Source: Vairimorpha necatrix (lineage: Eukaryota). From it: 64,000 nucleotides of DNA. The stretch is taken from contig CP142728.1 of NCBI GenBank assembly GCA_036630325.1, positions 992,001 through 1,056,000 of the forward strand. The letters run 5' to 3'. The notes under the pieces were generated by a model. That model made no database searches. It was given only the letters and a program-made list of their open reading frames with translations, and was not told where the DNA came from. The number at the start of each line of letters is the position of its first letter. The stretch's first letter is position 1. Position numbers and translations under genes: made by a program. Shown piece by piece: positions 28,513-60,234 of this stretch.

Positions 28513-29991
28513 CAAACAATGTGATGAGCTATGTTTTGTTTGATCAGGTCATCACATCCTGCCCACTCCTCCGGATTTGATATCATCCTCGTGAATTTCG
28601 CTTTCAAATCCTTCCAACTTATACCATTTTCCCTTTCTTCCTACTTTAGTCACTGCTACGGGTCCTATGTATTGATCGTCTAATTTTTTCGCTTTAAAAT
28701 TTCTTACAAAGACTTGTTGTCCTACCTCAAATGCTGTGGCCTTGGTAGTGCTGGTTTTTAACTCAGTAGCGTTTCTACAGTTAGTGTCAAATTTAGAAAT
28801 TTCCTCCTCGTAAGGATCACATGGATTGTGATTTATCGTTAAAGTAGCTGGCGGTATTTTTAGTGTGGTATTATAATTAAAATTGTGTCTTAGATGGATT
28901 GCTTCTGTTATTGATTTGATGTTTCTACCTTTGTATAATCTAAGGCATTGCGTAATAGTTTGGTTTAGTCGCTAGCATAATTCCATTGCTACTTGGATGG
29001 TATATCGGAGTTGCTATCTTGTGAATCTCTTGTTCTTTACAAAATTTTACTAGTCTCTCAGATTCATATTGTGATCCATTATCGCAAATAAAGGTCTTCG
29101 GCCTTTCATAGATACCTATCCAGTCTTTTAGACATGCAATTATGCGCTCAGCTGTAGACTTGTACGCAAAATATACTTTTAAAGTTCTCGTATATACGTC
29201 TACAATGGTAATATAGTATCATCTTTGACATATACCATTATGCATGTAGTTCTCTAGACTAAATGGTCCATAAACATAACTCGATACTTTTTCGAATGGT
29301 GAAGAGGCTACAATATTTTTATGTGATTTGGTATTTCTGGTTTTCTTTTTAGTTTTAATGCAATCGATACAATTTCCGGTCATTTCTTTAATCAATTTCT
29401 TAATACCTAAAACTTTGAATATGGGCTTAATATTGTGATGAAGAATAGTAGAGCCTACGTGTATGGATTTTCAATGCATAAATTGCAGAAAGTTTCTCGT
29501 CTGGTCGTTTTCGATAATTATTCTGTTTTTTGTGTCTTTAGCCCATTTATTGGGATCATCTTTAGTTTTCATCACGAACTGATTAAGCTCGTTTACATAT
29601 TTCGTGCTATCTATGTCATCTTCGCCGTCCTCTTGACATCTCGTGCTAAGGATTTTAATGTTGATTTTTATTGTCTGATTTTTGTAATTTATTATTACAT
29701 TATTTCCACTAAAAAATTCGTTACCTAATACGAATTCGACGGGGCAATTTTTTAGCAAATAGAGTTTTACAATATGGCTTGTTTTCTTGGTTCCAAGAAG
29801 TATTTCTTCGGTCACAGTTTGTGTACACTCTTCCTTCTTATCATTCCCGTATTTTATAGTTATAGGGGAATCTTCTACGATCGACAGTTTTAATTTTACA
29901 GCAACGTCACTTTTTATAAAATTTCTGGTGGCTCCCGTGTCTATTAAAAACGATGTTTTGAAATTTTTAATTGTCCCTGGTAATTCTGGTG

Positions 29992-34014: not shown

Positions 34015-37000
34015 CTGGTGTTTTTGTGTTCAGCCCCTTTTCACCTATAATAAAGTTTTTAGTCTCACCTTTACGTTTTTCTTCATGTCTTTTACTTTTT
34101 TCTTTTAAAAATTTCTGATAGGTCTCGCATTCTTTCGAGTCATGATCGTTATTCTTATGATATCTACACAACTTATTGTTTTCTATCACTTCAGACTTTT
34201 CTTTTATAGACTCTTTTTTTATAAAGTTGCCATTTTTAGTTTCTAGCATTATTTGTTTAGAGATTATTTTTTTTTTCAAGTGTGTACAGGTAACTTATAG
34301 CATCATTATAGTCTTTGAAATCGTGCTTGAAAAGCTCACCATCTGTATAAGGACCAAGCCCACTGTAAAATGTTTCTTCAACTCTTCTATTAAATTCGGG
34401 TTTAGTGAGTTTATGCGTTACGGCATATATATTTGCAAGCTCTTTAATTTCTTTAATATATTCTTCGATGGTTTCATAGTCTGTTTGTTTAATTGAAGCT
34501 AATTTAGAAAGTATGCTTCTACTATGTTCTATCGGAAATCTAAGACCGATCAGATAATCTCGTGTATTAAAAAAAGTCTTCCACTATCTTCTCTTTTTCG
34601 ATCAATGAGTCTTTGCTCATTTTCCTTGTCACCATCATTAGTTGTTTCAGTGTCCATATATTATCTTCAGATACATTCTCAATATCTTTTAACCATTCTA
34701 TGATATTCATATTTAGTATATCTTCAATGATGTAAAGGTACGTCGTGAACTTCTGTTCTAAGCCTTCTATTTGGTTTCGAATGTAATGAACTTTCCCTTG
34801 AAACTTTCTGTCTGTTTCCTTTCGTATTTCGACAGATGTACCTTGCTTAGGATTTCTCTGGTTGAATTCAACTTGACGTATCCTAGGCGAAGATACGTCT
34901 CGATGAGGTTAGAGGTGTTTTCAAAACTATTATTTTTTTTGTTAATTGAGTTTGCTTTGACCTTCTTACTCACCATGCCCTTTTGGGCTTTTTTTCTATT
35001 TATAGTTTTACATGTTTGTTTGTAAACAAACAAACAACAAGAAGTCTTAGAAAACCATTCTTGAAAAATAGCATAGTGCATCATTACATGGACATGGAGT
35101 ATTTGTTAAGAATAGTAAACAAACAATGTGATGAGCTATGTTTTGTTTGATCAGGGCATCACAGGAGTATACTGAAAAACTAAATACAAGTCAACCTATA
35201 TACATGAAACCAATAAATCTAAATATAACGGAACAGGACATAGTTACCCAATATAAGAACTATCTGGTACCAGAAAAATTTAAAATACCGGCTCAAGAAG
35301 AGATAACACGGTTAATACACGAAGGCATTATAGTGAAAACTGATAGCCACATTACGTCACCAGGATTTTTGATTTGTAAGAAAAATGGGCAAGTACGACT
35401 TGTCATAGACTACCGTTACTTAAATAATTATTTAATTGATGAACCTTGCAGTATCCCAAACATTTTAGAAAACATAAAAGGTATTGAAGAAAAGAAGATA
35501 TTTACGCAATTAGATTTAAAAAATAGTTTTAACCAGATACCGCTGCCAAAGAGTCGCGACCCCTAACTACATTTATACTCTTCAATCAACGCTATCAATA
35601 TGTAGGGATACCATTTGGGTTATAAATAGGACCGAAACTTTTCCAACGAGTAATTTTGAGTGTTCTCGGAGACCTACCTAATGTTTTCGTTTACATTGAT
35701 GATATAGTAATTTTTGCCAATACAATACACGAACACGACAAAATATTAGAAGAAGTTATTACACGATTAGAAAACAATAATATACAAATTAATCTAGGCA
35801 AATTTCATTTTTACCAGAAAAAGATAACCCTTTTAGGATATCTCATATCTTCACGAGGCATAGAACCAGACTTAAAATATTTAAAACATAAGATATTCAC
35901 TAAAGAAATAGAAACTAAAGAGATCTACAATGCCCAATAGAACTTTTAAATTGGTATAGACCATTTGTTGATGATTTAAGTACACGTATCAATAAAATAA
36001 CAGATTTATTAAAATCAAAGGAAATAAAAATAAACGAGGACCATAACAAATGCATACAAAAGATATGCAACGAAATTAAGGAAGGAAGTGCCTTGAAGTT
36101 CCCCGACTTTTCAAGAGTTTTTAAATTGAAATGCGACGCTTTTAACATAGGTATTAGAGGAACTTTACCAAGATCATGGAACATTAGGTTATTATAGTAA
36201 AAAATTGAATAGCACAGAAAAAAACTACTCCATTGTCGAAAAGGAATTATATGCAACAACAAAATGCGTGTTATTCTTTAGAAATATAGTACAAGGTTAT
36301 CATACCATAATCTATTCGGATAATAAAAATTGTATTACAATAAACACGGCAGCGACATCCAGAATGAAAAGATGGCATTTGTTATTACAAGACTTCAATG
36401 TTGAACTAGTCAAAATAGAAGGGAGCAAAAATAACGTAGCTGATACATCATCAAGATTAACAATGATAAATCAAATAAAACTGACGAAAGAAGGAAAGTT
36501 TGCAAAAAGAGTAAAAGAATTTTTAACAGGAGAAAGAGACGAGGAAAACAGGAGAATTATTAAACAGGAAAAGGACCTCCGCTTTATAAAGTTGATTCAT
36601 AAGTTTAGTGGACACGTAGGGGTTACGAAGACGTACGAAAACATTTATCGATATTACAAAATTGAAAATATAAAACATAAAGTTGTAGAAGTAATTCGAG
36701 AGTGCAGGAAGTGTAAACACTATAAGATAAAACAAGAAAAGAAAAGGCCAGCGTTAAAATAGGAGCCTCTAATATTTTTGAAAAGATCTATACAGATACA
36801 TACGGAACATTCAGTTTAGAAGGAATATCACACGATGAAGTTACCGAAAAAGTATATTACATGACTATAACGGACATATTCACAAGGTTATCAAGAGTTT
36901 ACTTTACATATAATGCCAATAGCGAAAGTGTGTTATCATGTTTAAAGAAATGGATTAAGAAACATAAGAAACCTAAATCACTTATATCAGATAATGGCAC

Positions 37001-42830: not shown

Positions 42831-43123
42831 CTGTAAGAATGAAGGTGTATGCCGACATTTTGAGGTTACTGCTTTTTTTGTATGTAAAGTAGGTGTTGTA
42901 TACTATAAGAGAGCGTACTTTATGTCTAGATTTGGTACCCTTACAAGAGAGAGTCTACGTCGCGGAGGGCGGGACCGATGTTTTTTAACTAGGTGCAGAT
43001 CTCTAAGTCTTACCAACCTTCGGCTGCTGGTTGGTAAGTAGGGTCAGCTATACTCTAGGGGTGGGAGACCCATTGCTGGTGAGAAGGACACCGTTAACTT
43101 TCGAGTAATTCTTCATATTTTTA

Positions 43124-43435
43124 ACCTGGGAGAGGTTGGGCATGATACTGAAGCTGTATTGTTCCGCTGAACTGAGTCGTGTTCTTAAATGGTGTATTGA
43201 ACCAGGCGTTGTGTTTTCGTCAGGTCCGCGAAATATGTAGTCAGAGATGACTAAGGATCTGTTACCTACGGGAACAAATTTTTCTCCTACAAGCGAGGCC
43301 GTTGAGGTATGCTGGCGTGTAATCGCAATTATTGATGTTTTTCTTTATTGGTGGAGTTTTTGGTGGCTTGGTGGCTTTTCTTCGTTTTGCTGATTCTGTC
43401 TTTTTTTACAATAAACAATTTTATTTTATTTTTTT
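43124..43435 (+). repeat. Structured repeat module R, copy 1 (most divergent)
   Basis: Homologous to 48956-49268, 51536-51863 and 58887-58986; ends in AATAAA followed by a T-rich tract. Confidence 0.9.
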
Positions 43436-43508
43436 AGTCTTACCAACACCCTATGAAGGGTAAAGCGCAACAAACCAGGAGCAAGCTCAGTAGAGAAAAT
43501 TTTGACGT

Positions 43509-45182
43509 ATGAAGGGTGAGACAAAACAAACCAGGAGCGAGCTCAGTAGAGCAAAAAGTGACCACTTTGGTAGTCCAAACAACAATTTAGATACAGAAAT
43601 GTATTTAAAACAACAAACTAAGCATGTATATGCTAATAAAAGTTTCCCAAGTGTTACTTTCAAAAATGATGGAGAAATGAAATATTTTCTCAAGAAAATC
43701 AAAATTCTCTCAGAAAGAATTAATAAAAATGATATTTTTGACACGTCAAAAAAAGAAAATAACAAAGATCTTATTGATCTTAAAAGATACATATCTAGCA
43801 CAACTGAATTAGTATTGATTCAGCAGACATATTTGGAGCTCTTCCATGACAAGCTAGAAAAACAAAATATCAAATTAAAAAATTTGATTAAAAATAATCT
43901 GATGGATGACAGTAATCAAATTACCGAATCATCCAAAAATAAAATCGAGATAATGATTGAGAATCACTCAAAAGAATGTGTAGAACAAAAGGATAATAAC
44001 TCCGATGTTCCAAATGATACCAGTAGCGAAACCCTTCAGTTAGCTACTGGAAACAATGATATTTCTCAACTAAAAATCATCAATGAAGATGTTTTAATTA
44101 ATGTCAAAAATATCGTGTCTGCTGTCAAAGCAGAAGAGGAAGATCGATTGTCGGAAGATGGCAAAAGAAAATGTATAGGTGTCTCAAATGCGTCTACAAA
44201 TATTGTTATTAATAAAAATATTAAAACAAAAGATGTTAAGCTAGACTTAGCCTCCATTAATAAAAAAGCAGTAGTTAGACATCTGTCAACTATCTCTGCT
44301 ATTATAGCTGGTAAAAGAAAAGCTCCTAAGAATGGAGTAAAACTTTACCATACAAATGAAGACGGATGGACATCTGTCAAACACACATTCAAGCCTAAAG
44401 TCCAGATAGACTTGAAGAAAAACAGAAGTGTCAACCCCACGTATAAATCCAACTTTAATAGATTTAAATCACTTAAAGTAGAAATCGGTGGCAATATAAA
44501 AGTGCCCAAAAATACTATTTATGAAGTTTTAAGGAGAAAATTTATCATTCCTAAAAAAGATCATGAAAAAAGAAGATCACAAAATCGTAAAAAAAATTCT
44601 ACCCCCAAAATGGAGAACAAAAAAGGTGAGAAATCTCAGAAAAAGGGAAGCTCAGTTTTACCAAAGAAAAACTGGGCTGAAGGGCTATCAGACGAAGCTC
44701 TCATGAAAATTATTAAGGGTGGTAGATACATATCTAAATGCAAGTTCAAGTTAGCTCTTGTGTCTGGACTCGGGTTGGAAGGGAAGCCCCAATCTAGAGA
44801 TGCCTGGGCAGCGATGATGGAAGTGCAAAGCAAAGATATTACCCTTATAAAACAATTTAAAGAGTCAGAAGTAGTACTCATGATGATTAGAGAAAACGTG
44901 TGCCAAAAGGTACTTAAAAAAATTAAAGAAAGATTTGTAGGTTCCGACATCTGCGATGATGAAGAATTCTTTGCTGGCTTCTTATCTTTTAATAAATCAA
45001 TTGTTCTTGGAGAACTACTGAGACTCTCCGGAACACATAAAAAGTTTGTACCACTTGTGAAAGCATGTAGGTACATAACTAAAGAATTGAATAAAGAAAG
45101 TCCCGAATACGATTCCTTTATTTACTTAAAAAAAATGATGGGTGAACCTGCCCGAGAATTCAAGGACTTTAATAATGAATAA
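43509..45182 (+). CDS. LINE ORF1 protein (557 aa, basic, no recognisable zinc knuckle)
   Basis: Long ORF directly upstream of and overlapping the APE-RT ORF; paralogue at 49414-51109. Confidence 0.8.
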   Translation: MKGETKQTRSELSRAKSDHFGSPNNNLDTEMYLKQQTKHVYANKSFPSVTFKNDGEMKYFLKKIKILSERINKNDIFDTSKKENNKDLIDLKRYISSTTELVLIQQTYLELFHDKLEKQNIKLKNLIKNNLMDDSNQITESSKNKIEIMIENHSKECVEQKDNNSDVPNDTSSETLQLATGNNDISQLKIINEDVLINVKNIVSAVKAEEEDRLSEDGKRKCIGVSNASTNIVINKNIKTKDVKLDLASINKKAVVRHLSTISAIIAGKRKAPKNGVKLYHTNEDGWTSVKHTFKPKVQIDLKKNRSVNPTYKSNFNRFKSLKVEIGGNIKVPKNTIYEVLRRKFIIPKKDHEKRRSQNRKKNSTPKMENKKGEKSQKKGSSVLPKKNWAEGLSDEALMKIIKGGRYISKCKFKLALVSGLGLEGKPQSRDAWAAMMEVQSKDITLIKQFKESEVVLMMIRENVCQKVLKKIKERFVGSDICDDEEFFAGFLSFNKSIVLGELLRLSGTHKKFVPLVKACRYITKELNKESPEYDSFIYLKKMMGEPAREFKDFNNE

Positions 45183-48100
45183 AGTATCTTTGCTAAAGTC
45201 CTGTTTTTATAGGAAATTATTTTCTTATAACAAAAGCGATATTTTTAAATCTTTAAATAAAAAAATGCATAATCCAATTGGTTATTATAAATTAAAAAAT
45301 ACTTTCAAAACACCAAGGAGACTGAATAGTTTCAAATATTTTTCTATTAGAAAGAATATATGGTGGAAGAAAGTACAAGAAAAATATCGTATTGTCAAGA
45401 TACAAAGAATTCCTTATGGAGTGAAAGATCTCCTCAAAGACTTATGTAAGAAGAAATCTCTTTTGGAGAATTCCATCATTACAGCAAGAAAGTATAGACG
45501 AAGAGACACGTCTTTTACAAAAATAATAGTTGAAAAACTATACGCAAATTCATTGATTAAGACAGTTAAAGCTAAAGGCTTTAAAGTTTTAAATGATAAT
45601 AGAAAAGAACTAGAGAAATCTAGTAAAGTAAATAAAAAGACCAAAGAGAACATAAAACTCTTAAGTCTAAACATTAATCATCTCTCCAATAAGAGAGAAG
45701 AACTTGAGTTTCTTCTTAAGAAGGAGAAGCCAGAAATCATGTGTTTACAGGAAACTTGGAGACAATCTACAAGACCTTTAAAACTTGAAAAATACACTAC
45801 AGTTGAAACACCTAGTGGTGGAAAAAATAAACCAGGATTAATAACTCTGGTTAGAAATAATGGAGCGATCAGATGTTCCAAAAAAGGAACAGACTCAAAT
45901 ATCCTGCAAACCGTAGTTGAGTTTAGTTCCGCAGGCAAATGGATTAAGTATTTAGTCTTAAATGTCTACATACCACAAGACAAGGATCTCAAGAGGGAGA
46001 CCTTGGCCAGATTACTTTCTCTTTTAGAAAAAGAGAATTTCAGAAATAACTATAGTGAGATCATAGTGATGGGAGATATGAATATGCAGAGTTCTAGTCT
46101 CAAGAAAAAACTAAATGTAGTTGGTTTGCCAGTTACAATAAAATATAACAGCAACGATGGTACAAGGATCCTCAAAGATGGTAAAAGATCTAAGAGGAAA
46201 ATTGATACCATCTTTCGACTAAAAAGTAATGATAATGAGAAGATCATTATATCCAAGTCTTGGGTATTAAGTGATCACTTAGTGCTCAAAAGAAAAATTA
46301 AACTTGCCGTTGATAAGATCTCAGATCAACTAGTTTATGATAAGAAGATGCTGGAAAATCTAAAAGTGATTAAAAAGCTTAAAAGGAAGTTGAGTAATCA
46401 ACAATTAAACATGAATAATCTTCCTGAGATTATTCAAAAAGTTTGTACATCGTTAAAGATTTACAGAAAGAAAAAAGTCCATACTGGACTTACAATGAGA
46501 TGGAGATATTTAAAAGTCTTCAAAGAAAGACGTCTAGCAGCAAGAGCTGTTATGAAAAATTACAACGAAATCAACTCAATTAGATTCGAATATCTCAAAA
46601 AGAGAGTAGACGAAACTAAAAAGTTGATTCGCAAAGATAGATCGAAACTTTGGGCTTTAAGAGGAATAAAGCTCTTTAAAAGTAACAGATCCCGAGAATT
46701 CTGGCAATGGCTGAAAAATAGAAGTGTTTCCATTCGTTTGGATCAAGTGGCTCTAATTGACCACAATAAGATTCTTCAGACTTGCCGAGCAAAGAAGCTA
46801 GAAATAGCGAATAAATTTTACGCTGATTTGGCGTCAGAGAATGATATAGATGTCAATGTCTATGATAAAGTAGATCTTGTTGATCTTCCCCCAGAGATAA
46901 CAGATGAAGAATTTCTATCCGCACTGAATAAATGTGGAAATAACAAAGCAGCCGGTCCTGATGAGATTCCAACCGAGCTATACAAACACTTACTGACTAG
47001 AGCAGTAGAAGATAAATTCTTTAAATTCATGCTACATGAATTTAATAAATATATTTGTGGAAATAGTCCTCCTGAATACTGGAGCATGGCAAACATGATT
47101 TGCCTCCACAAAAAAGGAGATGAGACAGATCTAAATAACTATAGGGGAATCTCCTTAATTAACACAATTAGTAAGATCTATCTCAAGATAATAAATGACA
47201 GGTTAACTCAATTTGTCGAAGAACAAGATATACTCTCTAGATACCAAGCAGGATTCCGAGCAGGTGAAGAGTGTATGAATCAGATTACATCTCTACTAGA
47301 AATAGTGAGAAGAAGAGAATTCAGAGGCCTGAACACAATAATGTGTTTTATTGACTTTGAAAAAGCTTATGATAATGTAAGTCATGACTTATTATTTGAG
47401 AAGCTTACAAAACTTAATATCCCATTGTATTTAATCAATACAATAAAGGATATTTATAAATATACCACCATGCGTGTGAAAATTGGTGGTGACACGTCAA
47501 GTGGCTATAGCTACAGAAAAGGAGTGAGACAAGGGTGCCCTTGTTCTCCAATGCTGTTCAATATATTCATCAATGATATTTTTGACGGCATAGAAGGAGT
47601 TTTGATCCCAAGATCAAATACGAGAGTTCCGGGACTGATGTTCGCAGATGATATTGTTGTCTTCGGAAACAACATTGATGATCTTAATAATAAGATCAAT
47701 AGAATTTCTAATTGGGCGGTTAATAACAGAATGAAGATTAACTGCACAAAAAGCGGAGTATTAGAATGGAATGCTCATTCTAACATACAAGAATTCCGAA
47801 GTTTGTATTCTCTCAGTACAGACTTTGGTGTGATTGAAGAAGTCACTGAATACAGATATCTAGGTGTCTTAATTAAAAGAAACACGCTAGAAGAACATTT
47901 GGTCAAAGACGCAGCAATGCGTGGCAAGAAAGCCTTAGACGCCTTGATGCCCAAGTTGATGAATAATAGCATCAACCTTTACTTCAAGGCGATCTTAATC
48001 AAATGTGTACTAGTACCCACACTAATGTATGGTAGTGAACTGTGGGGAATGTCAAGTACAAGAGCAGGTAAGATTGACAGGATCTTGAGAAAATCTATCA

Positions 48101-48867
48101 GAATGATATTCAAAAGAGTATTAGTTCCACTAGATAGAGTAATGGACGAGTTCAGTATCGAACGAATTCATATACAAGCAGCTTTAAGTAGATTTAGAGC
48201 ATACAACAAGTGGAAACACAATAAGACAATCATATCGGATATAATTGCAATAAATCCGAAAGAAAGAAAAACTACCTGGTGTTCAAGAACACAAAGATGG
48301 TTAAAACGATTTGTCGGCGACGAATACGAATCAAGTGATAGTAAATTTATCACTTCAAAAATAATTGATGTACTAAGAAGTCGAAGAACTCTAAATACTT
48401 CCTTAGCTGCATCAATAGCAAACCAATATGACATAAGAAATTCACAAATAAAATATGTCATGAACAAAATAAATAATAGAAAAATTAGAACATATACTAG
48501 ATTGAGATGTAATCTAGTAAAGTGGTCCTCAGCAATAGCATATTCAAAAAGAATACCAATGAGTTATAGAAACAAATGCTTTTTGTGTGATGGACCACAA
48601 GAAAATTTAGAACACTTTCTGCTGGAGTGCGTCTGTTTAACTGACATTAGATCATCTTTTGAAAATAAACTGCCTCTACTGACTTGTTCAAAAACAAATA
48701 TCCGAGATAAAACCAAGCAACTCCTTGGTAATAAAATCGGACTAAAAAATAACCCAGATAAGATAAAAGAACTTTGTTGCACTATAGAGTTCTTAGATAG
48801 AATGGTTGTCTCTAGAAGAATTATGATTAATAACAAACTGAAGGAGATAACGAAACAAAATAATTAA
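45175..48867 (+). CDS. LINE ORF2: APE endonuclease, reverse transcriptase and C-terminal CCHC finger (intact)
   Basis: SLNIN, CLQETW, GDMN, SDH (APE); YRGISL, DFEKAYD, GVRQG, FADD (RT); CFLC...EHFLLEC. First ATG at 45175 overlaps the end of ORF1. Confidence 0.95.
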   Translation: MNKVSLLKSCFYRKLFSYNKSDIFKSLNKKMHNPIGYYKLKNTFKTPRRLNSFKYFSIRKNIWWKKVQEKYRIVKIQRIPYGVKDLLKDLCKKKSLLENSIITARKYRRRDTSFTKIIVEKLYANSLIKTVKAKGFKVLNDNRKELEKSSKVNKKTKENIKLLSLNINHLSNKREELEFLLKKEKPEIMCLQETWRQSTRPLKLEKYTTVETPSGGKNKPGLITLVRNNGAIRCSKKGTDSNILQTVVEFSSAGKWIKYLVLNVYIPQDKDLKRETLARLLSLLEKENFRNNYSEIIVMGDMNMQSSSLKKKLNVVGLPVTIKYNSNDGTRILKDGKRSKRKIDTIFRLKSNDNEKIIISKSWVLSDHLVLKRKIKLAVDKISDQLVYDKKMLENLKVIKKLKRKLSNQQLNMNNLPEIIQKVCTSLKIYRKKKVHTGLTMRWRYLKVFKERRLAARAVMKNYNEINSIRFEYLKKRVDETKKLIRKDRSKLWALRGIKLFKSNRSREFWQWLKNRSVSIRLDQVALIDHNKILQTCRAKKLEIANKFYADLASENDIDVNVYDKVDLVDLPPEITDEEFLSALNKCGNNKAAGPDEIPTELYKHLLTRAVEDKFFKFMLHEFNKYICGNSPPEYWSMANMICLHKKGDETDLNNYRGISLINTISKIYLKIINDRLTQFVEEQDILSRYQAGFRAGEECMNQITSLLEIVRRREFRGLNTIMCFIDFEKAYDNVSHDLLFEKLTKLNIPLYLINTIKDIYKYTTMRVKIGGDTSSGYSYRKGVRQGCPCSPMLFNIFINDIFDGIEGVLIPRSNTRVPGLMFADDIVVFGNNIDDLNNKINRISNWAVNNRMKINCTKSGVLEWNAHSNIQEFRSLYSLSTDFGVIEEVTEYRYLGVLIKRNTLEEHLVKDAAMRGKKALDALMPKLMNNSINLYFKAILIKCVLVPTLMYGSELWGMSSTRAGKIDRILRKSIRMIFKRVLVPLDRVMDEFSIERIHIQAALSRFRAYNKWKHNKTIISDIIAINPKERKTTWCSRTQRWLKRFVGDEYESSDSKFITSKIIDVLRSRRTLNTSLAASIANQYDIRNSQIKYVMNKINNRKIRTYTRLRCNLVKWSSAIAYSKRIPMSYRNKCFLCDGPQENLEHFLLECVCLTDIRSSFENKLPLLTCSKTNIRDKTKQLLGNKIGLKNNPDKIKELCCTIEFLDRMVVSRRIMINNKLKEITKQNN

Positions 48868-48955
48868 TATAGCTTAATTAAAAAAAATGAAGATCTAGAA
48901 TTAGAAGAAAGAAGTGTTATATTATTAACAAAAAGACTTATATTTATTTATATTT

Positions 48956-49268
48956 GACCTGGGAGAGGTCGGGCATGATACTGATGCTGTATTGTTCCGC
49001 TGAACTGAGTCGTGTTCTTAAATGGTGTATTGAGCCAGGCGTTTTCGTTTTTCATCAGACCCATGAAAGTGGGTCTCTAGTCATATTATGACTAAGGATG
49101 TATCCTATGGGAACAAACTTTTCTCCTACAAGCGAGGCCGTTAAGGTATGCTGGCGTGTAAACGCAATTATTGATGATTTTCTGGTTGGTGGAGTTTTTG
49201 GTGGCTTGGTGGCTTTTCTTCGTTTTGCTGATTCTGTCTTTTTACAATAAACATTTTTATTTTATTTT
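48956..49268 (+). repeat. Structured repeat module R, copy 2
   Basis: Direct repeat of R, 88 nt after the ORF2 stop. Confidence 0.92.
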
Positions 49269-51532
49269 AAGCTCAGTAGAGCAAAAAGTGACCACTTTGG
49301 TGGTCCAAACAACAATTTAGATACAGAAATGTATTTAAAACAACAAACTAAGCATGTATATGCTAATAAAAGTTTCATAAGTGTTACTTTCAAAAATGAT
49401 GGAGAAATGAAATATGAAGGGTAAAGCGCAACAAACCAGGAGCAAGCTCAGTAGAGCAAAAAGTGACCACTTTGGTGGTCCAAACAACAATTTAGATACA
49501 GAACTGTATTTAAAACAACAAACTAAGCATGTATATGCTAATAAAAGTTTCCCAAGTGTTACTTTCAAAAATGATGGAGAAATGAAATATTTTCTCAAGA
49601 AAATCAAAATTCTCTCAGAAAGAATTAATAAAAACGATATTTTTGACACGTCAAAAAAAAGAAAATAACAAAGATCTTCTTGATATTAAAAGATACATAT
49701 CTAGCACTACTGAATTAGTATTGATTCAGCAGACATATTTGGAGCTCTTCCATGATAAGCTAGAAAAACAAAATATCAAATTAAAAAATTTGAAAAAAAA
49801 TAATCTGATGGATGACAGTAATCAAATTACAGAATCAACAAAAAATAAAATTGAGATGATGATAGAGAATCACTCAAAAGAATGTGTAGAACAAAAGGAT
49901 AATAACTCCGATGTTCCAAATGATACCAGTAGCGAAACCCTTCAGTTAGCTACTGGAAACAATGATATTTCTAAATTAGAAATCATCAATGAAGATGTTT
50001 TAATTAATGTCAAAAATCTCCCATCTGCTGTCATAAATCTCGACACTGCTGTCAAAGTAGAGGAACAAGATAAATTGTCAGAAGATGGCAAAAGAAAATG
50101 TATAGATGTTTCAAAGGCATCTACAGATATTATAATTAATAAAAATATTAAACCAAAAGATGGTAAGCTAGATATAGCTTCCATTAACAAAAAAGCAGTA
50201 GTTAGACATCTGTCAACTATCTCTGCTATTATAGCTGGTAAAAGAAAAGCTCCTAAGAATGGAGTCAAGCTTTTCCATATAAACGAAGACGGATGGACAT
50301 CTGTCAAACACACATTCAAGCCTAAAGTCCAGATAGACTTGAAGAAAAACAGAAGTGGTAAAACCACAGATAAAACCAACTTTAATAGATTTAAATCACT
50401 TAAAGTAGAAACTGGTGGCAATGTAAAAGTGCCTAAAAAGATTAATCATGAAGCTGTAAAGAGAAAAGATATCATTCCTAAAAGAGATCATGAAAAAAGA
50501 AGATTACTAAATCAGAAAATAAATTTTACAAAAAAAACGAAGGACAGAAAAAATGAGAAATGTCAACAAAAAAGAAGGCCAGTTTTACCAAAGAAAAACT
50601 GGGCCAAAGAGCTAACTGAAGAAGCTCTTATGAAAATTATAAAGGATGGTAGAATTATTTCCAAATGTAAGTTTAGGCTAGCTCTTGCTTCTGGACTCGG
50701 ATTGAAAGGGAAACCTCAATCTAGAGACGCTTGGGCAGCCTTAGCTGATGTGGAAAATAAAGATATACCACTTATAAAACAATTTAAAGACTCGGAAGTA
50801 GTACTTCTGATGATTAGAGAACACGTGTGCCAAAAGGTACTAAGCAAAATTAAAGAAAAGTTCGTAGGTTCTAATATCTGTGAGGAAGTTAATTTCTTCA
50901 TCGACTTTTTGTCTTTAACAAAAACAACTGTTCTAGGAGAACTACAAAGACTCTCTCGAACGCATAAAAACTTTGTACCACTTGTTAAAGCATGTAGGTA
51001 CATAACTAAAGAATTAAATAAAGAAAAGCAAAACCATGGATATTTCATTTATTTAGAAAATATGATGGGTGAGCCTGCCCGAGAATCTAAGGACTTTAAC
51101 AATGAATAAAGTATCTTTGTTAAAGTCCTGTTATTATAGGAAATTATTTTCCTATAACAAGAGTGATATTTTCAAATCTCTAAATAAAAAACGCATAATC
51201 CAATTGGATTTACTCAGATTAAAAATACTTTCCAAACGACAACGAGATTGAATAGTCTCAAGTATTTTTTCATTAGAAAGAATATGTGGTGGAAGAAAGT
51301 ACAAGAACAATATTGTATTGTCAAGATACAAAGAATTCCTTATGGAGTGAAAGATCTCCTCAAAGACTTATGTAAGAAGAACTCTCTTTTGGAGAATTCC
51401 ATTATTACAGCAAGAAAGTATAGACGAAGAGACACGTCTTTTACAAAAATAATAGTTGAAAAACTATACGCAAATTTATTGATTAAGACAGTTAAAGCTA
51501 AAGGCTTTAAAGTTTTAAATGATAATAGAAAA
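49269..51532 (+). mobile_element. Second LINE copy: frameshifted ORF1 plus the first ~430 nt of ORF2, then joined to R
   Basis: ORFs 49414-49668, 49643-51109 and 51069-51583 are paralogous to copy 1; the ORF2 sequence breaks at ...GATAATAGAAAA|TTTGACCTGGG. Confidence 0.92.
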
Positions 51533-51535
51533 TTT

Positions 51536-51863
51536 GACCTGGGAGAGGTCGGGCATGATACTGATGCTGTATTGTTCCGCTGAACTGAGTCGTGTTCTTA
51601 AATGGTGTATTGAGCCAGGCGTTTTTGTTTTTCATCAGACCCATGAAAGTGGGTCTCTAGTCATATTATGACTAAGGATGTATCCTATGGGAACAAACTT
51701 TACTCCTACAAGCGAGGCTGTTAAGGTATGCTGGCTGTAAGCGCACTTATTGATGATTTTTTCTTTATTAGTGGAGTTTTTGGTGGCTTGGAGGCTTTTC
51801 TTCGTTTTGCTGATTCTGTCTTTTTTACAATAAACAATTTTATTTTAATTTTATTTTTTTTTT
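51536..51863 (+). repeat. Structured repeat module R, copy 3
   Basis: Near-identical to copy 2. Confidence 0.92.
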
Positions 51864-53965
51864 AAATATTTTATCCTTAGAAGGGTACGATAATGAGGAC
51901 AAGAGAAACAACAAATAATCTAAATCCAATAAACAATAATATTTTAGACACGTTTCTCAGTGGTGGATACCACAAGTTAAATTTAACGAAGATGTATCCT
52001 AAGCTAAACAAAGGGATAAAGACTGAAAAAGACAAAGAAATGATCAGCTTTAAAATTAAAGTCAAAGGCCTAAAAGAGCCAATTATTAAGCAATTAGAAA
52101 TAGTAAAAAGTATGGAAAAAACCAACATGTTAGAGTGGTTTAGAAAATTTGACGAGCTTAGCAGTAAACTAGAATGGAACGAGGAAGAGAGCCTTTTAGT
52201 ATTGCAGAATGTAGTTCAAGTCAAGGAGTGCGAAGGAAGAAACGGGGACCAAACTTACGCGAAACTTAGAGACGGGATACTGAATAAAGCGTACCCACAT
52301 CATCTATTCTCAAATGTAAGCATTAGATTACTGGAAATTAAACAATACAAGTATGATTTGATAGAAGAAATGTTCGTGGAGATTCATGCCAAACTAGAAG
52401 TGGCTTCGTATTTAGAAAAGTACACCAAGAATGAATATGAAAGAAGATTTAACGAAGTTTGCTTAAATGCACTATCAGAGTCCACAAAAGATTATGTCAT
52501 GAAATCAGGAGTTAAAAATGTTAAGGAAATCATTAACTTACTAATAAATCTCGAGAAAGAACTAGTAGTTAGAATAAAGAATGATTTGGATCTAGCCAGG
52601 TGTAATCAAAACGAACCCAGAGAACCCATGCAGAGAAAAGAAATGAACCGATGGTGTAGTGTGCATAAATCTAAAACGCATAACACCAGAGATTGCTTCA
52701 GTAAGAACACTAGGAGTCAAAATAATACCCCTAGTGCCGATACAGAAGAATCTAAATTAAACAAAGATATTAAGTTTTCGCATTGTAAGGTAATTTTAAA
52801 AGAAAAATCGGAGTATTTAATAGTACAACTCCCCATTTCTATCAATGACCAGATGGTAATCGCTATATTAGATACAGGATGCACTAAAAGCCTAATAAGT
52901 GCAAAAAGGTGAATCAATTAGGAATTATTACAAGAAAAGATAGAGAAATATGCTTCATATTCGGAAACGGCCATCAAAAGAAGTCGGCAGATATAATAGA
53001 AGAGAAAATTAAAGTGAACATGTTAGATCTTGAACACCCAACAAGACTACATGTAATAAAAGAACTATCAGCAGATATAATTTTAGGAGTGGAATTTTTA
53101 TGCGAGAATCAAATACTTCTCAATTTTGCTACACAAACAATATATTGTAATCAAAAGATTATCAACATGGTAAATGGACTACCTCAACCGTACGAGGAGA
53201 ATAGAGATTTACTACTTCAGAAATGCTTTTGGATAAACAAAGAGACTGTCAGTTCCGGAAACACTTCCAGATTAATGAAATACATGGAAAATAATGATTT
53301 ATATAAAGAAATGAAGATTAATAAAATTTCATTCGAAATCAACAACAAAGAGGATTTGAGAATAACTAATAAAAAATACTCAATCCCGCACAAGTATCTG
53401 GATGCAACGAAACGAGAGATACAGAGACTCTTGAATGAGAAAATAATCCAATACAGTGAATGTAAGTACAGCAGCCCAGCTTTTGTCATTGCCAGGAAGA
53501 ACCACGAAATAAGATTAGTGGTAGATTATAGGGAACTTAACAGACATATAGTTGATGAAATAGACCTATTGCCGAAAATAGAAGATATGATCAATGAGGT
53601 CAAAGGGGCGAAGTATTTTTCTAAAATCGATCTAAAAAACGGGTTTAACCAAGTACCTATATAAGAGAACTCAATGAATGTGACAAGCTTTAGAATTCTA
53701 GGGAACGCATACAGATATACAAGAATCCCATTCGGCATTGAATCGGGTCCAAAATTATTCCAAAGGACTAAAATAAAATACTGGCTGAAATACCCCAAGT
53801 AGTAGTATATATAGATGACATCTTAATATACACATCAACCAAGGAGGAACATAATAAGATCCTAAACCAAGTACTAGATAGGCTGTCTAGTTACGAAATA
53901 AAAATTAACTTTGAAAAGAGTATATTTGGCGTTAAAGAAGTCGAAATGTTGGGACTTATAATAAA

Positions 53966-56900
53966 TGTTAACCATTTATTTATTAAGGGTTCTAAACCCT
54001 ACATCCCCCCTCCAGACGGGTAGTCTCTCCATCTTCTAAACAACTCTTCCTTATCTCTTTCAAATCATAATGCCTCTTTTTAACAATTTTACCATCCAGT
54101 AGTCTCACAATATATGAATCATTTTCACTTATAGCTACGATCCTTCCGCGACCCGTGAATCTTCCCTTGTCTGTTTTCGCACGTGTACCTAAATTTTCTC
54201 TCCTAGCGATTCTTACCTCTTGGCCTACTGTAAATGTCTCTCTGTGTCTTCTCTTGAACCGACCAGCATATTTTCCATTTTCATCATTTTCAATTATAAC
54301 TTCAGCAGTTTGATCTCTCCACGCTTCCATCGGCGTACATTTTATTGCTGTATGTAGTGTATTATTATATCCTTTGATTGCTCTTTCTATCTTTTCAGAA
54401 ATATTCCCATCATTTTGCTTTATCAATGTCTCTCTTATAGTTCTGATGCATCTCTCGATTCTACCATTACTCCTATGAGCTTCTAAGCCCACTTTCCTAT
54501 GTTTAATATCATTAATACTACACCATTCTTTAAATCTATTACTTACAAACTCTTTTCCGTTGTCTGTCACATATTCCTCTGGAAATCCATCTTCCCTTAT
54601 CCACTTTTTTAATACCTCTATAACTTCACTACTCTCTTTACATCTCAAATTCGAACCCCACAACCTTCTAGTAAAGTAATCAATACCCAGTAACACATAC
54701 CTATTCTCTCCACCTATGTCCATTAAATCCAACGCCACTTTCTCCAATTTCTTTCTAGTTACTACGAAATCACATCCTCCTGGGTTTTTCCTATTGTTAA
54801 TCCCACATATTTCACAATTCTTAATTACCTTATTAATATGATCTTTCATACCAGGCCAATACCATCTTTGTTTAATGTTATAATAAGTGCCTTTGACACC
54901 TCTATGGTTTAACTCCTCATGTACTCTTGTTATTTCATGTTCTCTACTATCTAGGCTCAATATCTCTTTCACCTCACCTGTGGAAAATTCCCAATACTGT
55001 TTACCGTCCTTTTCTTTAATATGTTTCTGCTTTTTTCCCAAAATTTGTTTTTCGATCACTTCTTTTCTCTTGTTGTCCTTTTCTTTTTGTTCATCCGAAA
55101 CTTCTACCTGATCATACTGCCTACTTAACGCATCTGCATCTGTCATCAACTCCCTTTTCACATACTCTATTGTAAAGTCAAACTCTTGAATCTGTTCTAC
55201 CCATCTGTTTATTCTGTTATTATTGAAGTATGGCTTATTTCTGATCTCTGCTAATGCTTTATGATCCGTCATCAAATGAAATTTCCTTCCTCTCAAATCA
55301 CTTTCAAACTTCTTTATTCCAAAAAACACCGCCAACATCTCCTTCTCACTTATCGTATATCTTCGCTCGGTAGGAGTCAACATTTTCGATGCCCATTGTA
55401 TCGGAATCCACTCACCCTCTTTATTTTCTTGTAATAGAATTGCTCCGATCCCCGTATCACACGCATCAGTTCTTACTCTAAATAGCTTTTTTCCGTCCGG
55501 AATCTTCAACTTTTTCATATCTCTCAAGCCTTGCTTCATATCCTCAAAGGCTCTTTCCATATCCTCCGTCCAATTCCACTTAACATCTTTCTTTAAAGCC
55601 TCAGTAAGCCTTACTGTTCTATACGCATAGTTGGGAATAAAGTCTCTAAACCAACCAGTTAGTCCTAAAAATCTTCTTAACTCTCTAACATTCTCAGGTT
55701 TTCTATATTCCAATGTCTCCTGCTTTTTAATCTCATTCGGTCCCATGACCTCCCCATTAATTGTTACTCCCAGCAACATCACCTCATCTTTTTTGTATTG
55801 TATCTTTGTTTGGTTTATTCTCAACCAACACTCTTTAAACTTTTTAATTACCCTCTCTAGTAACTCGTCATGCACTCTTACGTCTTTTCCATGAATAACT
55901 ATATCATCCATATATACTTCCACGCCTTTACCTCTGAATTCATCTAAAACTCTGTTCATTACTCTCTGCATTATATGAAGCGAATTCTTAAACCCCATAA
56001 CCATACTATTCCATTCGTATACTCGACCATTCACTTCAAATGCTGTTTTGTGCTTATGGTGCTTCTCAATCTCAATATGATAAAACCCTTCTTTTAAGTC
56101 GATAACCGTAAATACTTTTGACCCCTGTGTGGCTCTCATAATATCCTTAATTAACGGTAGTGAGTACGGGTCCTTGTCAACCAAATCGTTTAACGCCATC
56201 AAATTGCTTACCAATCTTACGTCCCCATTTGGGTTTTCAAGTGCTCTTATTGGACTCCTCCACTCACTTTTGGAACGTCTTATAACCCCTCTATTTTCCA
56301 ACTTATTCAAGTACTCCTCAAATTTCACCCTAAGGTAGTATGGCACATTCTGCCCTCTTTTCACAACCTTTTCACCTTGCTTAGTATTTATTGGACACTT
56401 CTCTCCTGTGAGATATTTTATCTTTTCTTCTGATTCTTTAAAAACTTCCGGATACTTTTCAATTAAATTTTCTAACTTATTTTCTGTTTTACATCTTTTC
56501 TCTTCATTGTTGATAATTGGTTCTTTCTGTAAAACTTGTTCCTTTTTAATTTTATATTTTTCCCTACCAGCTACACTTTCATAACATTCTCTAGCGTAAT
56601 GCCCTTCTTTCTTACATATAAAACATTTTGTAGTTTCTCTGATTTCTCTTCTTTTCCTATACATCCTAAGATTTTCTTTTCTTTCTTCCCTAAACTCTTT
56701 CAACACTTTATCCATAATCTCTTTAATCATTTCTTGTCTTTCTTCTGACTCTCTCTCAAATTCTGCTCCTTTTTGTAAGCCTTTATAAATTTCCTCCCAA
56801 CTGCTCCTTCCGTCACAAAAATTTTCAAAAATATAATCCTGCAAGTTCGCAGATGCCAAATCCATAACATCTTTCCACTCAACTTTCAATATTAACTTTA

Positions 56901-57031
56901 GTCTCTTATCTATCCTAATTGCCTCTTTCTCTAATGTTCTAGCCTCTTGACTACGGGACTCTCTTGTTTCCCTGTTCATCCTTGTGTTCGCCATGTTAAC
57001 CATTTATTTATTAAGGGTTCTAAACCCTACA
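53966..57031 (-). mobile_element. Minimal Ty3/Gypsy element H, 3066 bp, identical 38-bp LTRs
   Basis: LTRs 53966-54003 and 56994-57031 (TG...CA); ATAAA duplication; TGGCGAAC directly after the 5' LTR; polypurine tract GGAGGGGGGA. Confidence 0.95.
53992..57003 (-). CDS. Gag-RT-RNase H-IN polyprotein (1003 aa), no protease motif visible
   Basis: CFICKKEGHYAREC knuckle followed closely by the RT N-terminus; YMDD; TDACD; HHCC and DDE integrase; single uninterrupted ORF. Confidence 0.92.
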   Translation of the reverse strand: MVNMANTRMNRETRESRSQEARTLEKEAIRIDKRLKLILKVEWKDVMDLASANLQDYIFENFCDGRSSWEEIYKGLQKGAEFERESEERQEMIKEIMDKVLKEFREERKENLRMYRKRREIRETTKCFICKKEGHYARECYESVAGREKYKIKKEQVLQKEPIINNEEKRCKTENKLENLIEKYPEVFKESEEKIKYLTGEKCPINTKQGEKVVKRGQNVPYYLRVKFEEYLNKLENRGVIRRSKSEWRSPIRALENPNGDVRLVSNLMALNDLVDKDPYSLPLIKDIMRATQGSKVFTVIDLKEGFYHIEIEKHHKHKTAFEVNGRVYEWNSMVMGFKNSLHIMQRVMNRVLDEFRGKGVEVYMDDIVIHGKDVRVHDELLERVIKKFKECWLRINQTKIQYKKDEVMLLGVTINGEVMGPNEIKKQETLEYRKPENVRELRRFLGLTGWFRDFIPNYAYRTVRLTEALKKDVKWNWTEDMERAFEDMKQGLRDMKKLKIPDGKKLFRVRTDACDTGIGAILLQENKEGEWIPIQWASKMLTPTERRYTISEKEMLAVFFGIKKFESDLRGRKFHLMTDHKALAEIRNKPYFNNNRINRWVEQIQEFDFTIEYVKRELMTDADALSRQYDQVEVSDEQKEKDNKRKEVIEKQILGKKQKHIKEKDGKQYWEFSTGEVKEILSLDSREHEITRVHEELNHRGVKGTYYNIKQRWYWPGMKDHINKVIKNCEICGINNRKNPGGCDFVVTRKKLEKVALDLMDIGGENRYVLLGIDYFTRRLWGSNLRCKESSEVIEVLKKWIREDGFPEEYVTDNGKEFVSNRFKEWCSINDIKHRKVGLEAHRSNGRIERCIRTIRETLIKQNDGNISEKIERAIKGYNNTLHTAIKCTPMEAWRDQTAEVIIENDENGKYAGRFKRRHRETFTVGQEVRIARRENLGTRAKTDKGRFTGRGRIVAISENDSYIVRLLDGKIVKKRHYDLKEIRKSCLEDGETTRLEGGCRV

Positions 57032-58886
57032 ATAAATGAAAAAGAAATCCGGCCTAACATAACCAGTATTGATAAAATAATGACAAAATTGGACATTTCA
57101 AAACGTAGAGAGCTACAGAAAATCTTAGGTGTCTTAAACTGGTACAGAGAATTTGCGCCAAATTTTAGTGCCAAAGTTATGGCTTTAACCGATAAACTGA
57201 AAGGAGGCGACCAAAAAGTAGAACTAACTGACAAAGAAAAGGGAATTATAAAGAATTTGGTCAGCGAAATTAAGTAAAATGGGAGATCGGTAGCCCCGAA
57301 TTACGCAGAAGAATTCTGCTTACAGACTGATGCTTCCGAGAAAGCCATGGGAGCTGTATTATTTCAACAGCGCGGATGCATTGGATATTATAGCAAAAAA
57401 TTTACCGTTACGGAAGGAAATTACACAATTGTCGAAAAAGAAATGTTCGCAATTTTACAAAGTTTAACATTTTTTAAAGGGATTATCATGGGCTATCCGG
57501 TAAAAGTTATGTGCGATAATAGAAATTGTCTATTTGATACCCAGAATAATAACAACAGAATGATAAGATGGAAGATGATGCTTAATGAATATAATTTTAC
57601 ACTAAAAGGCATAGAGGGGAAGAAAAATGTAATCGCAGACCAGCTGTCACGAATAGCAGAGGAAGTACTACAAGTAAAAATAAATAACGGAGATAAAGCG
57701 AGTAAAGCTTTTAAAAGGGAAGTAACGGTTTCGGAAACAATGAAGAGCAGTAAGATACGCATACGCCCGAATGAGAGCGAAAGATTTATTAAAAATATGC
57801 ACTTAAAAAGCAAGCATGCAGGAATGTTTGTTTTATACCATGATCTGAAAGATTATTATATTATGTATAAAATGAAGGAGTATCAAAAGGGTAGTTACCA
57901 GCTGTCAGAACTGCAAAGTCAACAAAAAATTCAGCTACCACAGATTTGAAGAGAAAGCAGAAATCACAGCTAATACACCTTTTGAAAAAATATGTTCAGA
58001 TATATACGGCCCATCAAAAATAAACAAAAAGAAATGGTATATACTGACGATCGTCGATGTTTACACCAGATACACCAAAGTGTATAAATTAAGAGAAATT
58101 TCAGATAAGAGAGTTGTAGAGTGTTTTGAAAAATGGTGCAAGGAGTTCCAATATCCAGAAAAGGTAATTACAGATAACGGAACTCAGTATACGAGTAACC
58201 GAGTTTAGAACTTTATGAATAAACATAACATAAAAATTATACATGTACCCAAATACCTCCCTCAAAGCAATGGGATCAGTGAGAGAACGAATAGTACCAT
58301 ATCAGAAATAATTAGATTATATAAAACGGAACCTCTGGAAAATATAATAGAAAATATCGAGGTGAGACTGAATAAAAACTTTAGAAGATCGATAGGCTGT
58401 GCACCGGAAGAATTAGTCACAGGAAAAAATAATTTGATCCCAATGGTAGAATTCGGGTTAAGAAATTAGTAAGAATAAGGAAAAAGAATCCGTCTAAGAA
58501 AAGGATCAAAGAAGTGAAAATCGGAGATAAGGTGTATGTCAAGAACTTTCAAGCTAAGAAATGGGAAAAGGTATTTACAGGGCCACACATAGTAGAATCA
58601 GTGGGAAAAAATAACCGATGGATCAAGGTAAAAGGAATCTATGAATGGATTCACATTGCAGACACCAAAATATAAAGTGAAAGGAGAGGCAGATTATGAT
58701 ATCCCAAATATCATAAAATTATATTTTATAAATATTTCCCTCCAAATTTCTCAGTTTTCCCTCCTAAAAGTATTTAAATATTTTATTTTTAGAAGGGTAC
58801 GATAATGAGGACAAGAGAAACAACAAATAATCTAAATCCAATAAACAATAATATTTTAGACACGTTTCTCAGTGGTGGATACCACA

Positions 58887-58986
58887 GGTGTATTGAGCCA
58901 GGCGTTTTCGTTTTTCATCAGACCCATGAAAGTGGATCTCTAGTTATATTATGACTAAGGATGTATCCTATGGGAATAAACTTTTC
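58887..58986 (+). repeat. Module R, partial copy 4
   Basis: Matches the central 100 nt of R copies 2 and 3; bounded by the LTR of F and the Merlin TIR. Confidence 0.9.
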
Positions 58987-60195
58987 GGCGCTACTTCATT
59001 TTCTTGCCCCCCCCCCTAAAAAAAACATCAATAAAAAGATACAAAATCGTGTTATTTTTCAAATCTAAACATTTTTTCGAGGGGGCAAGAAAATGAAGTT
59101 AAGGTATTTTTTGTCGATTTGAGAATTTTTAAATGCCTCCTGCAGATTCCTCATTAAGGGGTTAAAAAATTTTAATTTTTTAAACCCTTAATGAGGAATC
59201 TGCAGGAGGCTATCGCGAGCTAAATATCTGCGAAGATGCGTGCTTTAGGAACAAAGAAGCAGCAATTGATTTTTTTAGATAATGGTCTTCTAAAAAGATC
59301 GATTGCTTGCAGACATTGTTCGACATCAGAACGAACTGTTCTTATGAACATTAGTGGATGTTCCGGCTACATTGACGGTAAAGCTTATCGTTGTGTTAAT
59401 AAAAAGTATGGTTCGAAGAGCTTACTTAAAAATGGTACGATGTTTAAAGGGATAAGCTTTCCATTTCACAAAATTCTTAGAGCATTCTATTGCTGGGTAT
59501 TTAATTATACTACTTACCAAGCAATAGATCTTTGCAAGATATGTGAAAATTCATATCTTAAAATCAAGGATACAGTGATGGAAATCATTGCTTCTAAAAG
59601 CGATGATAGCTACCAAATTGGAGGAACTTCTGTTCGTGTACAATTTGATGAAACCGCCATATGCAACGGGTTAATTGTATCTAATCCTTCTTCAACTTTG
59701 GATTTCATGCCTGGAATTCAATGGATTATAGGCGGCGTAGTAGAAGGTAATTGTGGAGAATTTGTTGTTGATTTGCTACCTAATCGACAATCTAGTACTA
59801 TTGAAGACTTTTTTAGACGCAGACTAAAACGTGGGTCTATTACAATTACTGATTGTTACTGTTCATAACCATCAGCCTCTACAAATTTTGGGAGTGAACA
59901 TTACATAGTAAATCATTCGCTTGGATTTATAATGCAGAAGGAGACCACACAAATAATATAGAAAATTTGTGGTCCCATTTGAAGAATGAATATAGATCGA
60001 GAAGTCGTGTTAAAAGGCATAGGATAAATTTATTTCTAAAAGAATTTGCTTGGAAAAAAAGAAAAATCAATCATTCTAAAAATGATCATAGGTGTGCTTA
60101 TATAAAAATTCTAGAACTTAGTAGGTTGGAATAAATAAAATTTCTTTTTATTGATGTTTTTTTAAGGGGGGGGGGCAAGAAAATGAAGTAGCGCC
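58987..60195 (+). mobile_element. Merlin (IS1016/ISXO2-like) DNA transposon with ~55-bp TIRs; transposase disrupted
   Basis: TIR GGCGCTACTTCATTTTCTTGCCCCCC... and its reverse complement ending at 60195; ORF 59236-59868 with CxxC, VQFDET, WIIGG, PNR, ITD motifs, continuing past a stop and frameshift (VNHS, HTNNIENLW). Confidence 0.9.
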
Positions 60196-60234
60196 AAATT
60201 ATTGAACCCAAACAAAAAAACAAAAGCAGAGGTT

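Follow-up and report, generated by a model that had tools for sequence, protein, structure and literature searches.

A recently amplified Ty3/gypsy family of Vairimorpha necatrix with 38-bp long terminal repeats, no protease and a candidate poly(A)-completed Gag stop in its clade

The DNA considered here is a stretch of 64,000 nucleotides of Vairimorpha necatrix (GenBank assembly GCA_036630325.1, contig CP142728.1, positions 992,001 to 1,056,000 of the forward strand), called the window below; all positions are those of this stretch. On its minus strand, at 53966–57031, lies a long terminal repeat (LTR) retrotransposon of ~3.1 kb, the window element, whose single open reading frame (ORF) encodes no protease. 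It lies reversed within the reverse transcriptase (RT) of a degenerate, protease-bearing gypsy element, the host element. The features are the following, in the reading direction of the window element and with the host element last.

57032–57036, no strand: target-site duplication on the 5' side of the element, ATAAA, which 11 of 11 relatives of the host carry only once at the unoccupied site
56994–57031, minus: 5' LTR of 38 bp, TG...CA, with CCC at LTR positions 15–17, AATAAA at 20–25 and ATG at 29–31
56981–56993, minus: primer-binding site (PBS) of 13 nt, complementary to tRNA-Arg(UCG), overlapping the ORF
53992–57003, minus: Gag-RT-RNase H-integrase ORF of 1003 aa without a protease (ORF list, Pfam)
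56749–56964, minus: N-terminal domain of four helices, about residues 14–85, probably a single capsid fold like the capsid N-terminal domain, CA-NTD (AlphaFold, profile match)
56632–56748, minus: long charged helix, residues 86–124, in place of the second capsid domain of relatives (AlphaFold, profile comparison)
56584–56625, minus: CCHC zinc knuckle, residues 127–140 (Pfam)
56407–56583, minus: poorly conserved linker of ~60 aa that replaces the protease (alignment, AlphaFold, linker lengths)
56530–56550, minus: candidate internal poly(A) signal, ATTAAA-N12-TTA, a degenerate form of the AATAAA-N12-TAY of the clade, putative in function and weak in the window family
55759–56406, minus: reverse transcriptase, with YMDD at residue 364 (Pfam, profile match)
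55180–55572, minus: RNase H (Pfam)
54049–54945, minus: integrase, with zinc-binding, core and C-terminal parts (Pfam, profile match)
54004–54013, minus: polypurine tract adjoining the 3' LTR, with a similar tract in sibling families
53966–54003, minus: 3' LTR of 38 bp, identical to the 5' LTR and containing the stop codon of the ORF
53961–53965, no strand: target-site duplication on the 3' side of the element, ATAAA
51861–58886, plus: host element, a degenerate gypsy element with a protease and a 114-bp terminal repeat, its RT broken by the insertion

An earlier note on this DNA, made from the letters alone, had described identical 38-bp LTRs, a perfect 5-bp duplication, a PBS-like site, a polypurine tract and one ORF running from LTR to LTR, and all of these are borne out. 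The direct repeats at 53966–54003 and 56994–57031 are identical, and the window contains two matches to a 25-nt LTR pattern, against none in 100 shuffles. ATAAA stands on both sides of the element and occurs only once at the empty site in all 11 related copies of the host element. The PBS shows 13 nt of complementarity to a tRNA-Arg(UCG) of the genome and 12 nt to tRNA-Arg(ACG), and no more than 5 nt to any of the remaining 14 among the 16 tRNA types compared, a comparison that covered 30 of the 63 tRNA loci of the genome; the polypurine tract lies directly before the 3' LTR. The ORF (57003–53992) opens with the ATG at LTR position 29 and stops within the 3' LTR, and the junction of LTR and PBS creates a second in-frame ATG (Met4), the same junction methionine at which many relatives start. 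Regarding the motifs that had been seen packed into the LTR, CCC, AATAAA and ATG are present, whereas the supposed hairpin (AGGGTT/AACCCT) folds no better than shuffled sequence (z = -0.24) and is not present in the LTRs of sibling families. Contigs of a public DNA run cover the element.

The window element shows the TG...CA direct repeats with target duplication, the tRNA-directed PBS, the polypurine tract and the RT-RNase H-integrase order that characterize Ty3/gypsy elements, and its RT places among gypsy elements both in a tree and by profile match. The integrase is of the rve type and the family makes 5-bp duplications, unlike DIRS/Ngaro elements, which are defined by a tyrosine recombinase in place of the DDE integrase. 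The element is gypsy by descent, though it is not a canonical member since it lacks the protease.

Pfam recognizes the zinc knuckle (residues 126–140), RT (258–415), RNase H (478–608) and integrase (687–836) in the 1003-aa product and no protease family at E ≤ 1. As the earlier note had stated, there is no D-T/S-G motif between the knuckle and RT; the sole instance in the whole ORF falls within RNase H. The distance from knuckle to RT is ~60 residues, compared to the 90–92 positions of protease models, and the divergent retropepsin fold that had been named as a finding able to overturn the claim is not predicted by AlphaFold, which models residues 1–222 as helices plus the knuckle without any strand of three or more residues. 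In that model three short helices and one long helix span residues 14–124; the knuckle comes next, then a linker of low confidence, and no beta domain is seen. This linker is of low complexity and of variable length across the clade. Three clade proteins (P0011, P0024 and P0038) have linkers as long as those of protease-bearing relatives, and P0011 has a D-T-G that is not conserved.

A profile of the N-terminal region of Gag matches the first Gag domain of relatives that bear a protease or branch early, with a score of 28.3, against 8.2 ± 1.5 for shuffled columns, and the Gag profile of those relatives matches canonical gypsy Gag over both domains (35.3 versus 7.2 ± 1.1), although a direct profile match of the Gag core of the clade to canonical gypsy Gag fails. 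The N-terminal helical domain is retained across the clade, and no second capsid domain is seen in the AlphaFold model of the window element. Fold searches of the Gag part were unspecific and recovered no capsid structure, small helical bundles giving little discrimination in such searches. On these models all that appears to be left of Gag is one capsid-like helical domain, followed by a long helix and the zinc knuckle, and the simplest reading is probably a single capsid fold where Ty3 has two.

The genome (15.0 Mb in 12 contigs) contains at least 38 near-full-length matches to the element with 98–100% identity, and the LTR pattern finds 83 matches in it compared to none for a control. The search for further copies with distinct duplications that the earlier note had proposed yielded 39 copies for examination: the flanks differ in every one, a perfect 5-bp duplication accompanies 33, all have LTRs of 37–38 bp, and in 31 the two LTRs are identical. 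An ORF of at least 1000 aa is kept in 15 of the 39 and a stop or frameshift is found in 24, while in two copies both LTRs share one private change, the pattern expected from reverse transcription. The insertion target is palindromic, with A directly before and T directly after the duplicated five bases in 33 of 33 copies; in copies of the sibling families the A and the T are each found in 30 of 32. Mean pairwise divergence among the copies is only 0.5%, in agreement with the recent insertion that had been proposed, and copy number, distinct sites and low divergence together indicate a recent burst through reverse transcription and integration. Some loci are composite or rearranged: a copy of the window family received a sibling with 49-bp LTRs (L069), a full copy is followed by a 1-kb 3' part with an additional LTR (L063), and an internal deletion left LTRs 1.74 kb apart (L071).

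A one-off deletion would have been indicated, according to the earlier note, by longer LTRs and a protease in other family members; instead, the LTRs stay at 37–38 bp throughout the family, and none of the 42 closest proteins has a protease Pfam domain. The complete ones among these proteins are mostly ~1000 aa, many lie on contigs of 3.0–3.5 kb, and the named sources are Nosema granulosis, V. necatrix, Enteropsectra breve and one metagenome-assembled genome labelled Clostridium; clade proteins reach down to ~40% identity. Six sibling families in this genome have LTRs of 48–49 bp and a length of 3.1–3.2 kb, with CCC at LTR positions 25–26 and, just downstream, ATG at 33–34, and a metagenome contig carries a 39-bp LTR pair with a target duplication. 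Four protease-bearing elements in the window, on the other hand, have terminal repeats of 114–232 bp. A tree of RT-RNase H sequences used 49 rows labelled by hand and picked from 105; in it the 32 protease-less rows form one branch (support 99/91) nested among protease-bearing gypsy elements, and its sister rows have the protease. The aspartyl-protease Pfam models were positive for 12 of 12 controls and for none of six further clade members, and aspartyl protease is absent from the Pfam families common to at least two of 32 aligned clade members. The single branch and the Pfam results together indicate that the protease was lost once, long ago. Almost certainly, then, the window element belongs to a recently amplified microsporidian Ty3/gypsy family of an old clade that lost its protease once and whose LTRs have shrunk to 38–49 bp; the family targets palindromic A-N5-T sites and duplicates 5 bp on insertion.

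Some relatives depart from the common design. In the sister group, P0112 has a recognizable protease except that D-P-G replaces D-T-G; this is possibly an inactive enzyme en route to loss. Five early-branching proteins (P0039, P0041, P0090, P0040 and P0104) lack both protease and zinc knuckle, and P0039 and P0090 retain a two-domain Gag. One sibling family (L127–L131, L173, L180 and L181) has LTRs that end in TA rather than CA and lacks both the internal motif described below and an AATAAA near the LTR end.

Protease-less elements with such LTRs are probably under-annotated; LTRs this short fall under the usual length cut-offs of LTR finders. TRIM/Cassandra-type elements have short terminal repeats and encode no enzymes, and DIRS elements, which also lack a protease, carry a tyrosine recombinase and make no such target duplication; the window element differs from both types in that it encodes RT, RNase H and a DDE integrase itself. 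A TRIM or other non-autonomous miniature element was ruled out by these intact domains and by the ORF that remains open in 15 of the 39 copies. Ty3 of Saccharomyces cerevisiae (Metaviridae) has a protease, a frameshift and LTRs of ~340 bp. Among solved structures it is the best match to the clade profile, with E = 9e-107 across RT, RNase H and integrase, and it shares tRNA priming, the polypurine tract, the 5-bp duplication and a single knuckle with the window element; it differs by its double capsid fold (PMC6525542).

The nearest protease-bearing relatives of the clade are microsporidian single-ORF Ty3/gypsy groups, which also encode one polyprotein, often from an ORF that begins in the 5' LTR, with the RT-RNase H-integrase order (PMC4202319; PMC2474625). 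They differ from the window element by a protease, reported in "nearly all" Nosema bombycis elements (PMC2474625), by a two-domain Gag and by LTRs that are mostly 100–270 bp, the range of most complete elements listed for Anncaliia algerae, many of whose ORFs start in the LTR (PMC4202319). The same paper tabulates the A. algerae elements Aalg retro L, with LTRs of 50 bp, an ORF at 32–3049 and a total of 3127 bp, and retro S, with LTRs of 45 bp (Parisot et al., 2014). Two features are thus less exceptional than the earlier note took them to be: an LTR-borne start codon is common among the gypsy elements of Anncaliia, and LTRs of 45–50 bp had already been tabulated for them. Judged by eye, Aalg retro L belongs to the protease-less clade: it resembles the window element in its N-terminus, knuckle and RT motifs and leaves no room for a protease, and it differs in its LTR (50 versus 38 bp) and in an internal signal that is intact rather than degenerate. 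Conversely, the window family has the Aalg retro L-like features of ~3.1 kb, LTRs of at most 50 bp and one ORF of ~1000 aa without a protease. In the main text of that paper the word "protease" appears nowhere and the design of retro L is undiscussed, its data being in the supplement (PMC4202319), and no description of a protease-less design was found in the literature searched, which left out subscription papers and Repbase.

Two points go beyond the earlier note, namely the age of the clade and the candidate signal for a Gag-only mRNA that the clade carries. An N-K pair lies within 30 residues behind the knuckle in 21 of the 37 clade proteins that have one, and in 16 of these 21 a Tyr follows exactly four residues on; a spacer of three occurs in two cases and one of five in three, whereas elsewhere only 3 of 164 N-K pairs show N-K-x4-Y. 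The four spacer residues vary freely. In the DNA the motif is written AAT AAA, 12 nt, TAT or TAC in nine of nine cases (product of codon-usage odds 0.001), four of which are protease-bearing families of this genome; among distant gypsy proteins the motif occurs at one of 71 protease sites. Aalg retro L has the same spacing by eye (AATAAA-N12-TAT after the knuckle), and a degenerate metagenome copy has TAG at the position of the Tyr codon. In the window family, ATTAAA-N12-TTA stands equally far from the knuckle. The AATAAA-N12-TAY arrangement suggests that an mRNA for Gag alone is made and that its poly(A) tail completes the stop codon. Among protease-bearing microsporidian gypsy families, the boundary of Gag and protease carries AATAAA-N12-TAT in frame, or N-K-x4-Y, in L195 (family of window 30584–33961), L220, L225 and L232 and in the proteins P0192 and P0151. 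From its sequence distribution the candidate signal may be widespread within one branch of the single-ORF elements, and its occurrence in protease-bearing families means that it could predate and permit the loss of the protease.

Such stops have precedents in cellular genes: in the human cases known as PAY*, polyadenylation turns a Tyr codon into a stop (Yao et al., 2012, as cited in PMC4159000), and there as in Blastocystis cleavage within a UAU or UAC codon followed by poly(A) gives UAA and a truncated protein, whereas the counterpart in the present clade is put forward from sequence. In retrotransposons, no poly(A)-completed stop was found in the literature searched. A functional parallel is the plant Ty1/copia element EVD, a single-ORF element in which early termination yields a subgenomic RNA that supplies the surplus of Gag; unlike the route proposed here, that of EVD needs splicing, and the element belongs to the Ty1/copia lineage and keeps its protease (PMC5580714).

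On this basis a life cycle can be proposed in which the 38-bp LTR would act as a microsporidian minimal promoter, with CCC just before the ATG, and as a terminator through its AATAAA. The promoter role is suggested by the CCC motifs described in microsporidia, for which leaky AAUAAA/AUUAAA use and 5' untranslated regions of less than 7 nt are reported as well (PMC2803860). Transcription would start a few bases past the CCC in the 5' LTR and terminate where the 3' LTR ends or shortly beyond, so that a repeat region of ~15–20 nt would remain for strand transfer, and tRNA-Arg would prime at the LTR edge. Two RNAs would be made, so that the element would not need its own protease. The short RNA would be cleaved ~13 nt after the in-frame poly(A) signal behind the knuckle and its poly(A) tail would complete a UAA, giving a Gag-only product of ~160 aa; the full RNA would arise by read-through and give a Gag-RT-RNase H-integrase protein that works largely uncut. 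By itself, a single ORF that lacks both protease and frameshift yields no free Gag. For this mechanism taken whole, from LTR promoter and terminator to poly(A)-completed stop and largely uncut polyprotein, the chances seem close to even, if slightly short of it. The wider proposition is more tentative and rather doubtful: a fully autonomous protease-free lineage whose free Gag of ~160 aa would comprise a single capsid fold, the long helix and the knuckle. An unprocessed Gag-RT-RNase H-integrase protein would carry out reverse transcription and integration, and the 38-bp LTR would serve as promoter, repeat region, terminator and integrase ends; the poly(A) route would have arisen first, in protease-bearing ancestors, and made the protease dispensable.

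Several points weigh against the Gag-only signal. The site of the window family is weak alone, as four of the seven in-frame ATTAAA of the ORF have a T at that distance, and N-K-x4-Y is not found in 21 of the 37 clade proteins, among them the four closest relatives of the window family and the siblings L124, L127 and L172/L177. The rows are related, so that a Fisher P value overstates the significance, and many other A(A/T)TAAA hexamers in the ORF would all need read-through. In the protease-bearing families the Tyr stands 11–15 residues ahead of the catalytic Asp, at a place that would be hydrophobic in any case. Additionally, Ty3 and retroviruses require their own protease for productive replication. 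The distance from signal to cleavage is ~20 nt for eukaryotes generally (PMC2803860), and a measured value for microsporidia was not found in the literature searched.

The most serious competitor, though an unlikely one, is a semi-autonomous element with its own Gag, RT and integrase that relies on gypsy families in the same genome for a protease acting in trans, N-K-x4-Y being a retained cleavage site. Helpers do exist, another point against the proposed mechanism: protease domains match at no fewer than 150 places in the genome, often within open frames of at least 1250 aa, and the named hosts that were checked also contain protease-bearing families. The place of the motif at the Gag/protease boundary of protease-bearing relatives would fit, as would several instances in which Tyr is followed by a hydrophobic residue, resembling the sites that retropepsins prefer. 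Retropepsins recognize about four residues on either side of the bond, however, and a cleavage site leaves unexplained why N-K is fixed six and five residues before the Tyr and is always written AAT AAA. A borrowed protease would also need packaging together with a highly divergent Gag, one whose core has no direct profile match to canonical Gag, and the clade takes in proteins down to ~40% identity. Cleavage by a host protease, or trimming by the proteasome, in charged and disordered linkers and without any subgenomic RNA is improbable: the low-confidence, low-complexity and length-variable linker between knuckle and RT would suit it, and so would the many clade members without N-K-x4-Y, but it does not account for the exact spacing and AATAAA coding of the motif and would yield Gag and enzymes only at 1:1 unless the enzymes were destroyed.

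A capsid-free cycle, in which the knuckle attaches the uncut protein to its own RNA and the long helix drives oligomerization as a ribonucleoprotein while the remnant helical domain builds no shell, is quite improbable. One helical domain where Ty3 has two capsid folds and fold searches that recovered no capsid structure speak for it; a conserved signal exactly at the end of Gag, which implies a need for excess Gag, and a helical domain kept across the clade speak against it, and fold searches judge small helical bundles poorly in any case. That the element is a one-off deleted or misassembled copy, or hides a divergent protease, is scarcely credible, even with a stop or frameshift in 24 of 39 copies, the long linkers of P0011, P0024 and P0038 and the unconserved D-T-G of P0011. 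The 39 copies, the six sibling families, the 32-row clade, an independently published consensus of the same design and the covering contigs of the public DNA run all oppose it, as does a linker shorter than a protease domain and modelled without strands; for the window family these explanations are refuted by copies, siblings, clade and linker length.

A protease, a double capsid fold and LTRs of at least 100 bases are treated as the core of LTR retrotransposons and retroviruses. A lineage without a protease, with a capsid apparently halved and with an LTR of 38 bp, that has nevertheless left ~40 recent copies, shows how small an LTR life cycle can be. It makes testable both an RT and integrase that work uncut and the production of excess Gag from a single ORF, and the candidate poly(A)-completed stop predicts a 3' end ~13 nt past a defined hexamer in any microsporidian that carries it.

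The remainder of the window is rich in other elements. Three nested gypsy elements occupy 24300–35163, where the outer 3' LTR (~295 bp) is split by an element with 125-bp LTRs, leaving a misleading 37-bp repeat. At 43116–51850 there are tandem copies of a non-LTR retroelement, whose ORF1 measures 557 aa and ORF2 1230 aa; the gypsy host element interrupts the second of these copies. An element with 56-bp terminal inverted repeats at 58984–60198 contains a 210-aa ORF that appears to resemble Merlin/IS1595 transposases. A tRNA-Ile(TAT) gene (20977–21049) and a 183-aa ORF (15214–15765) also lie among the repeats.

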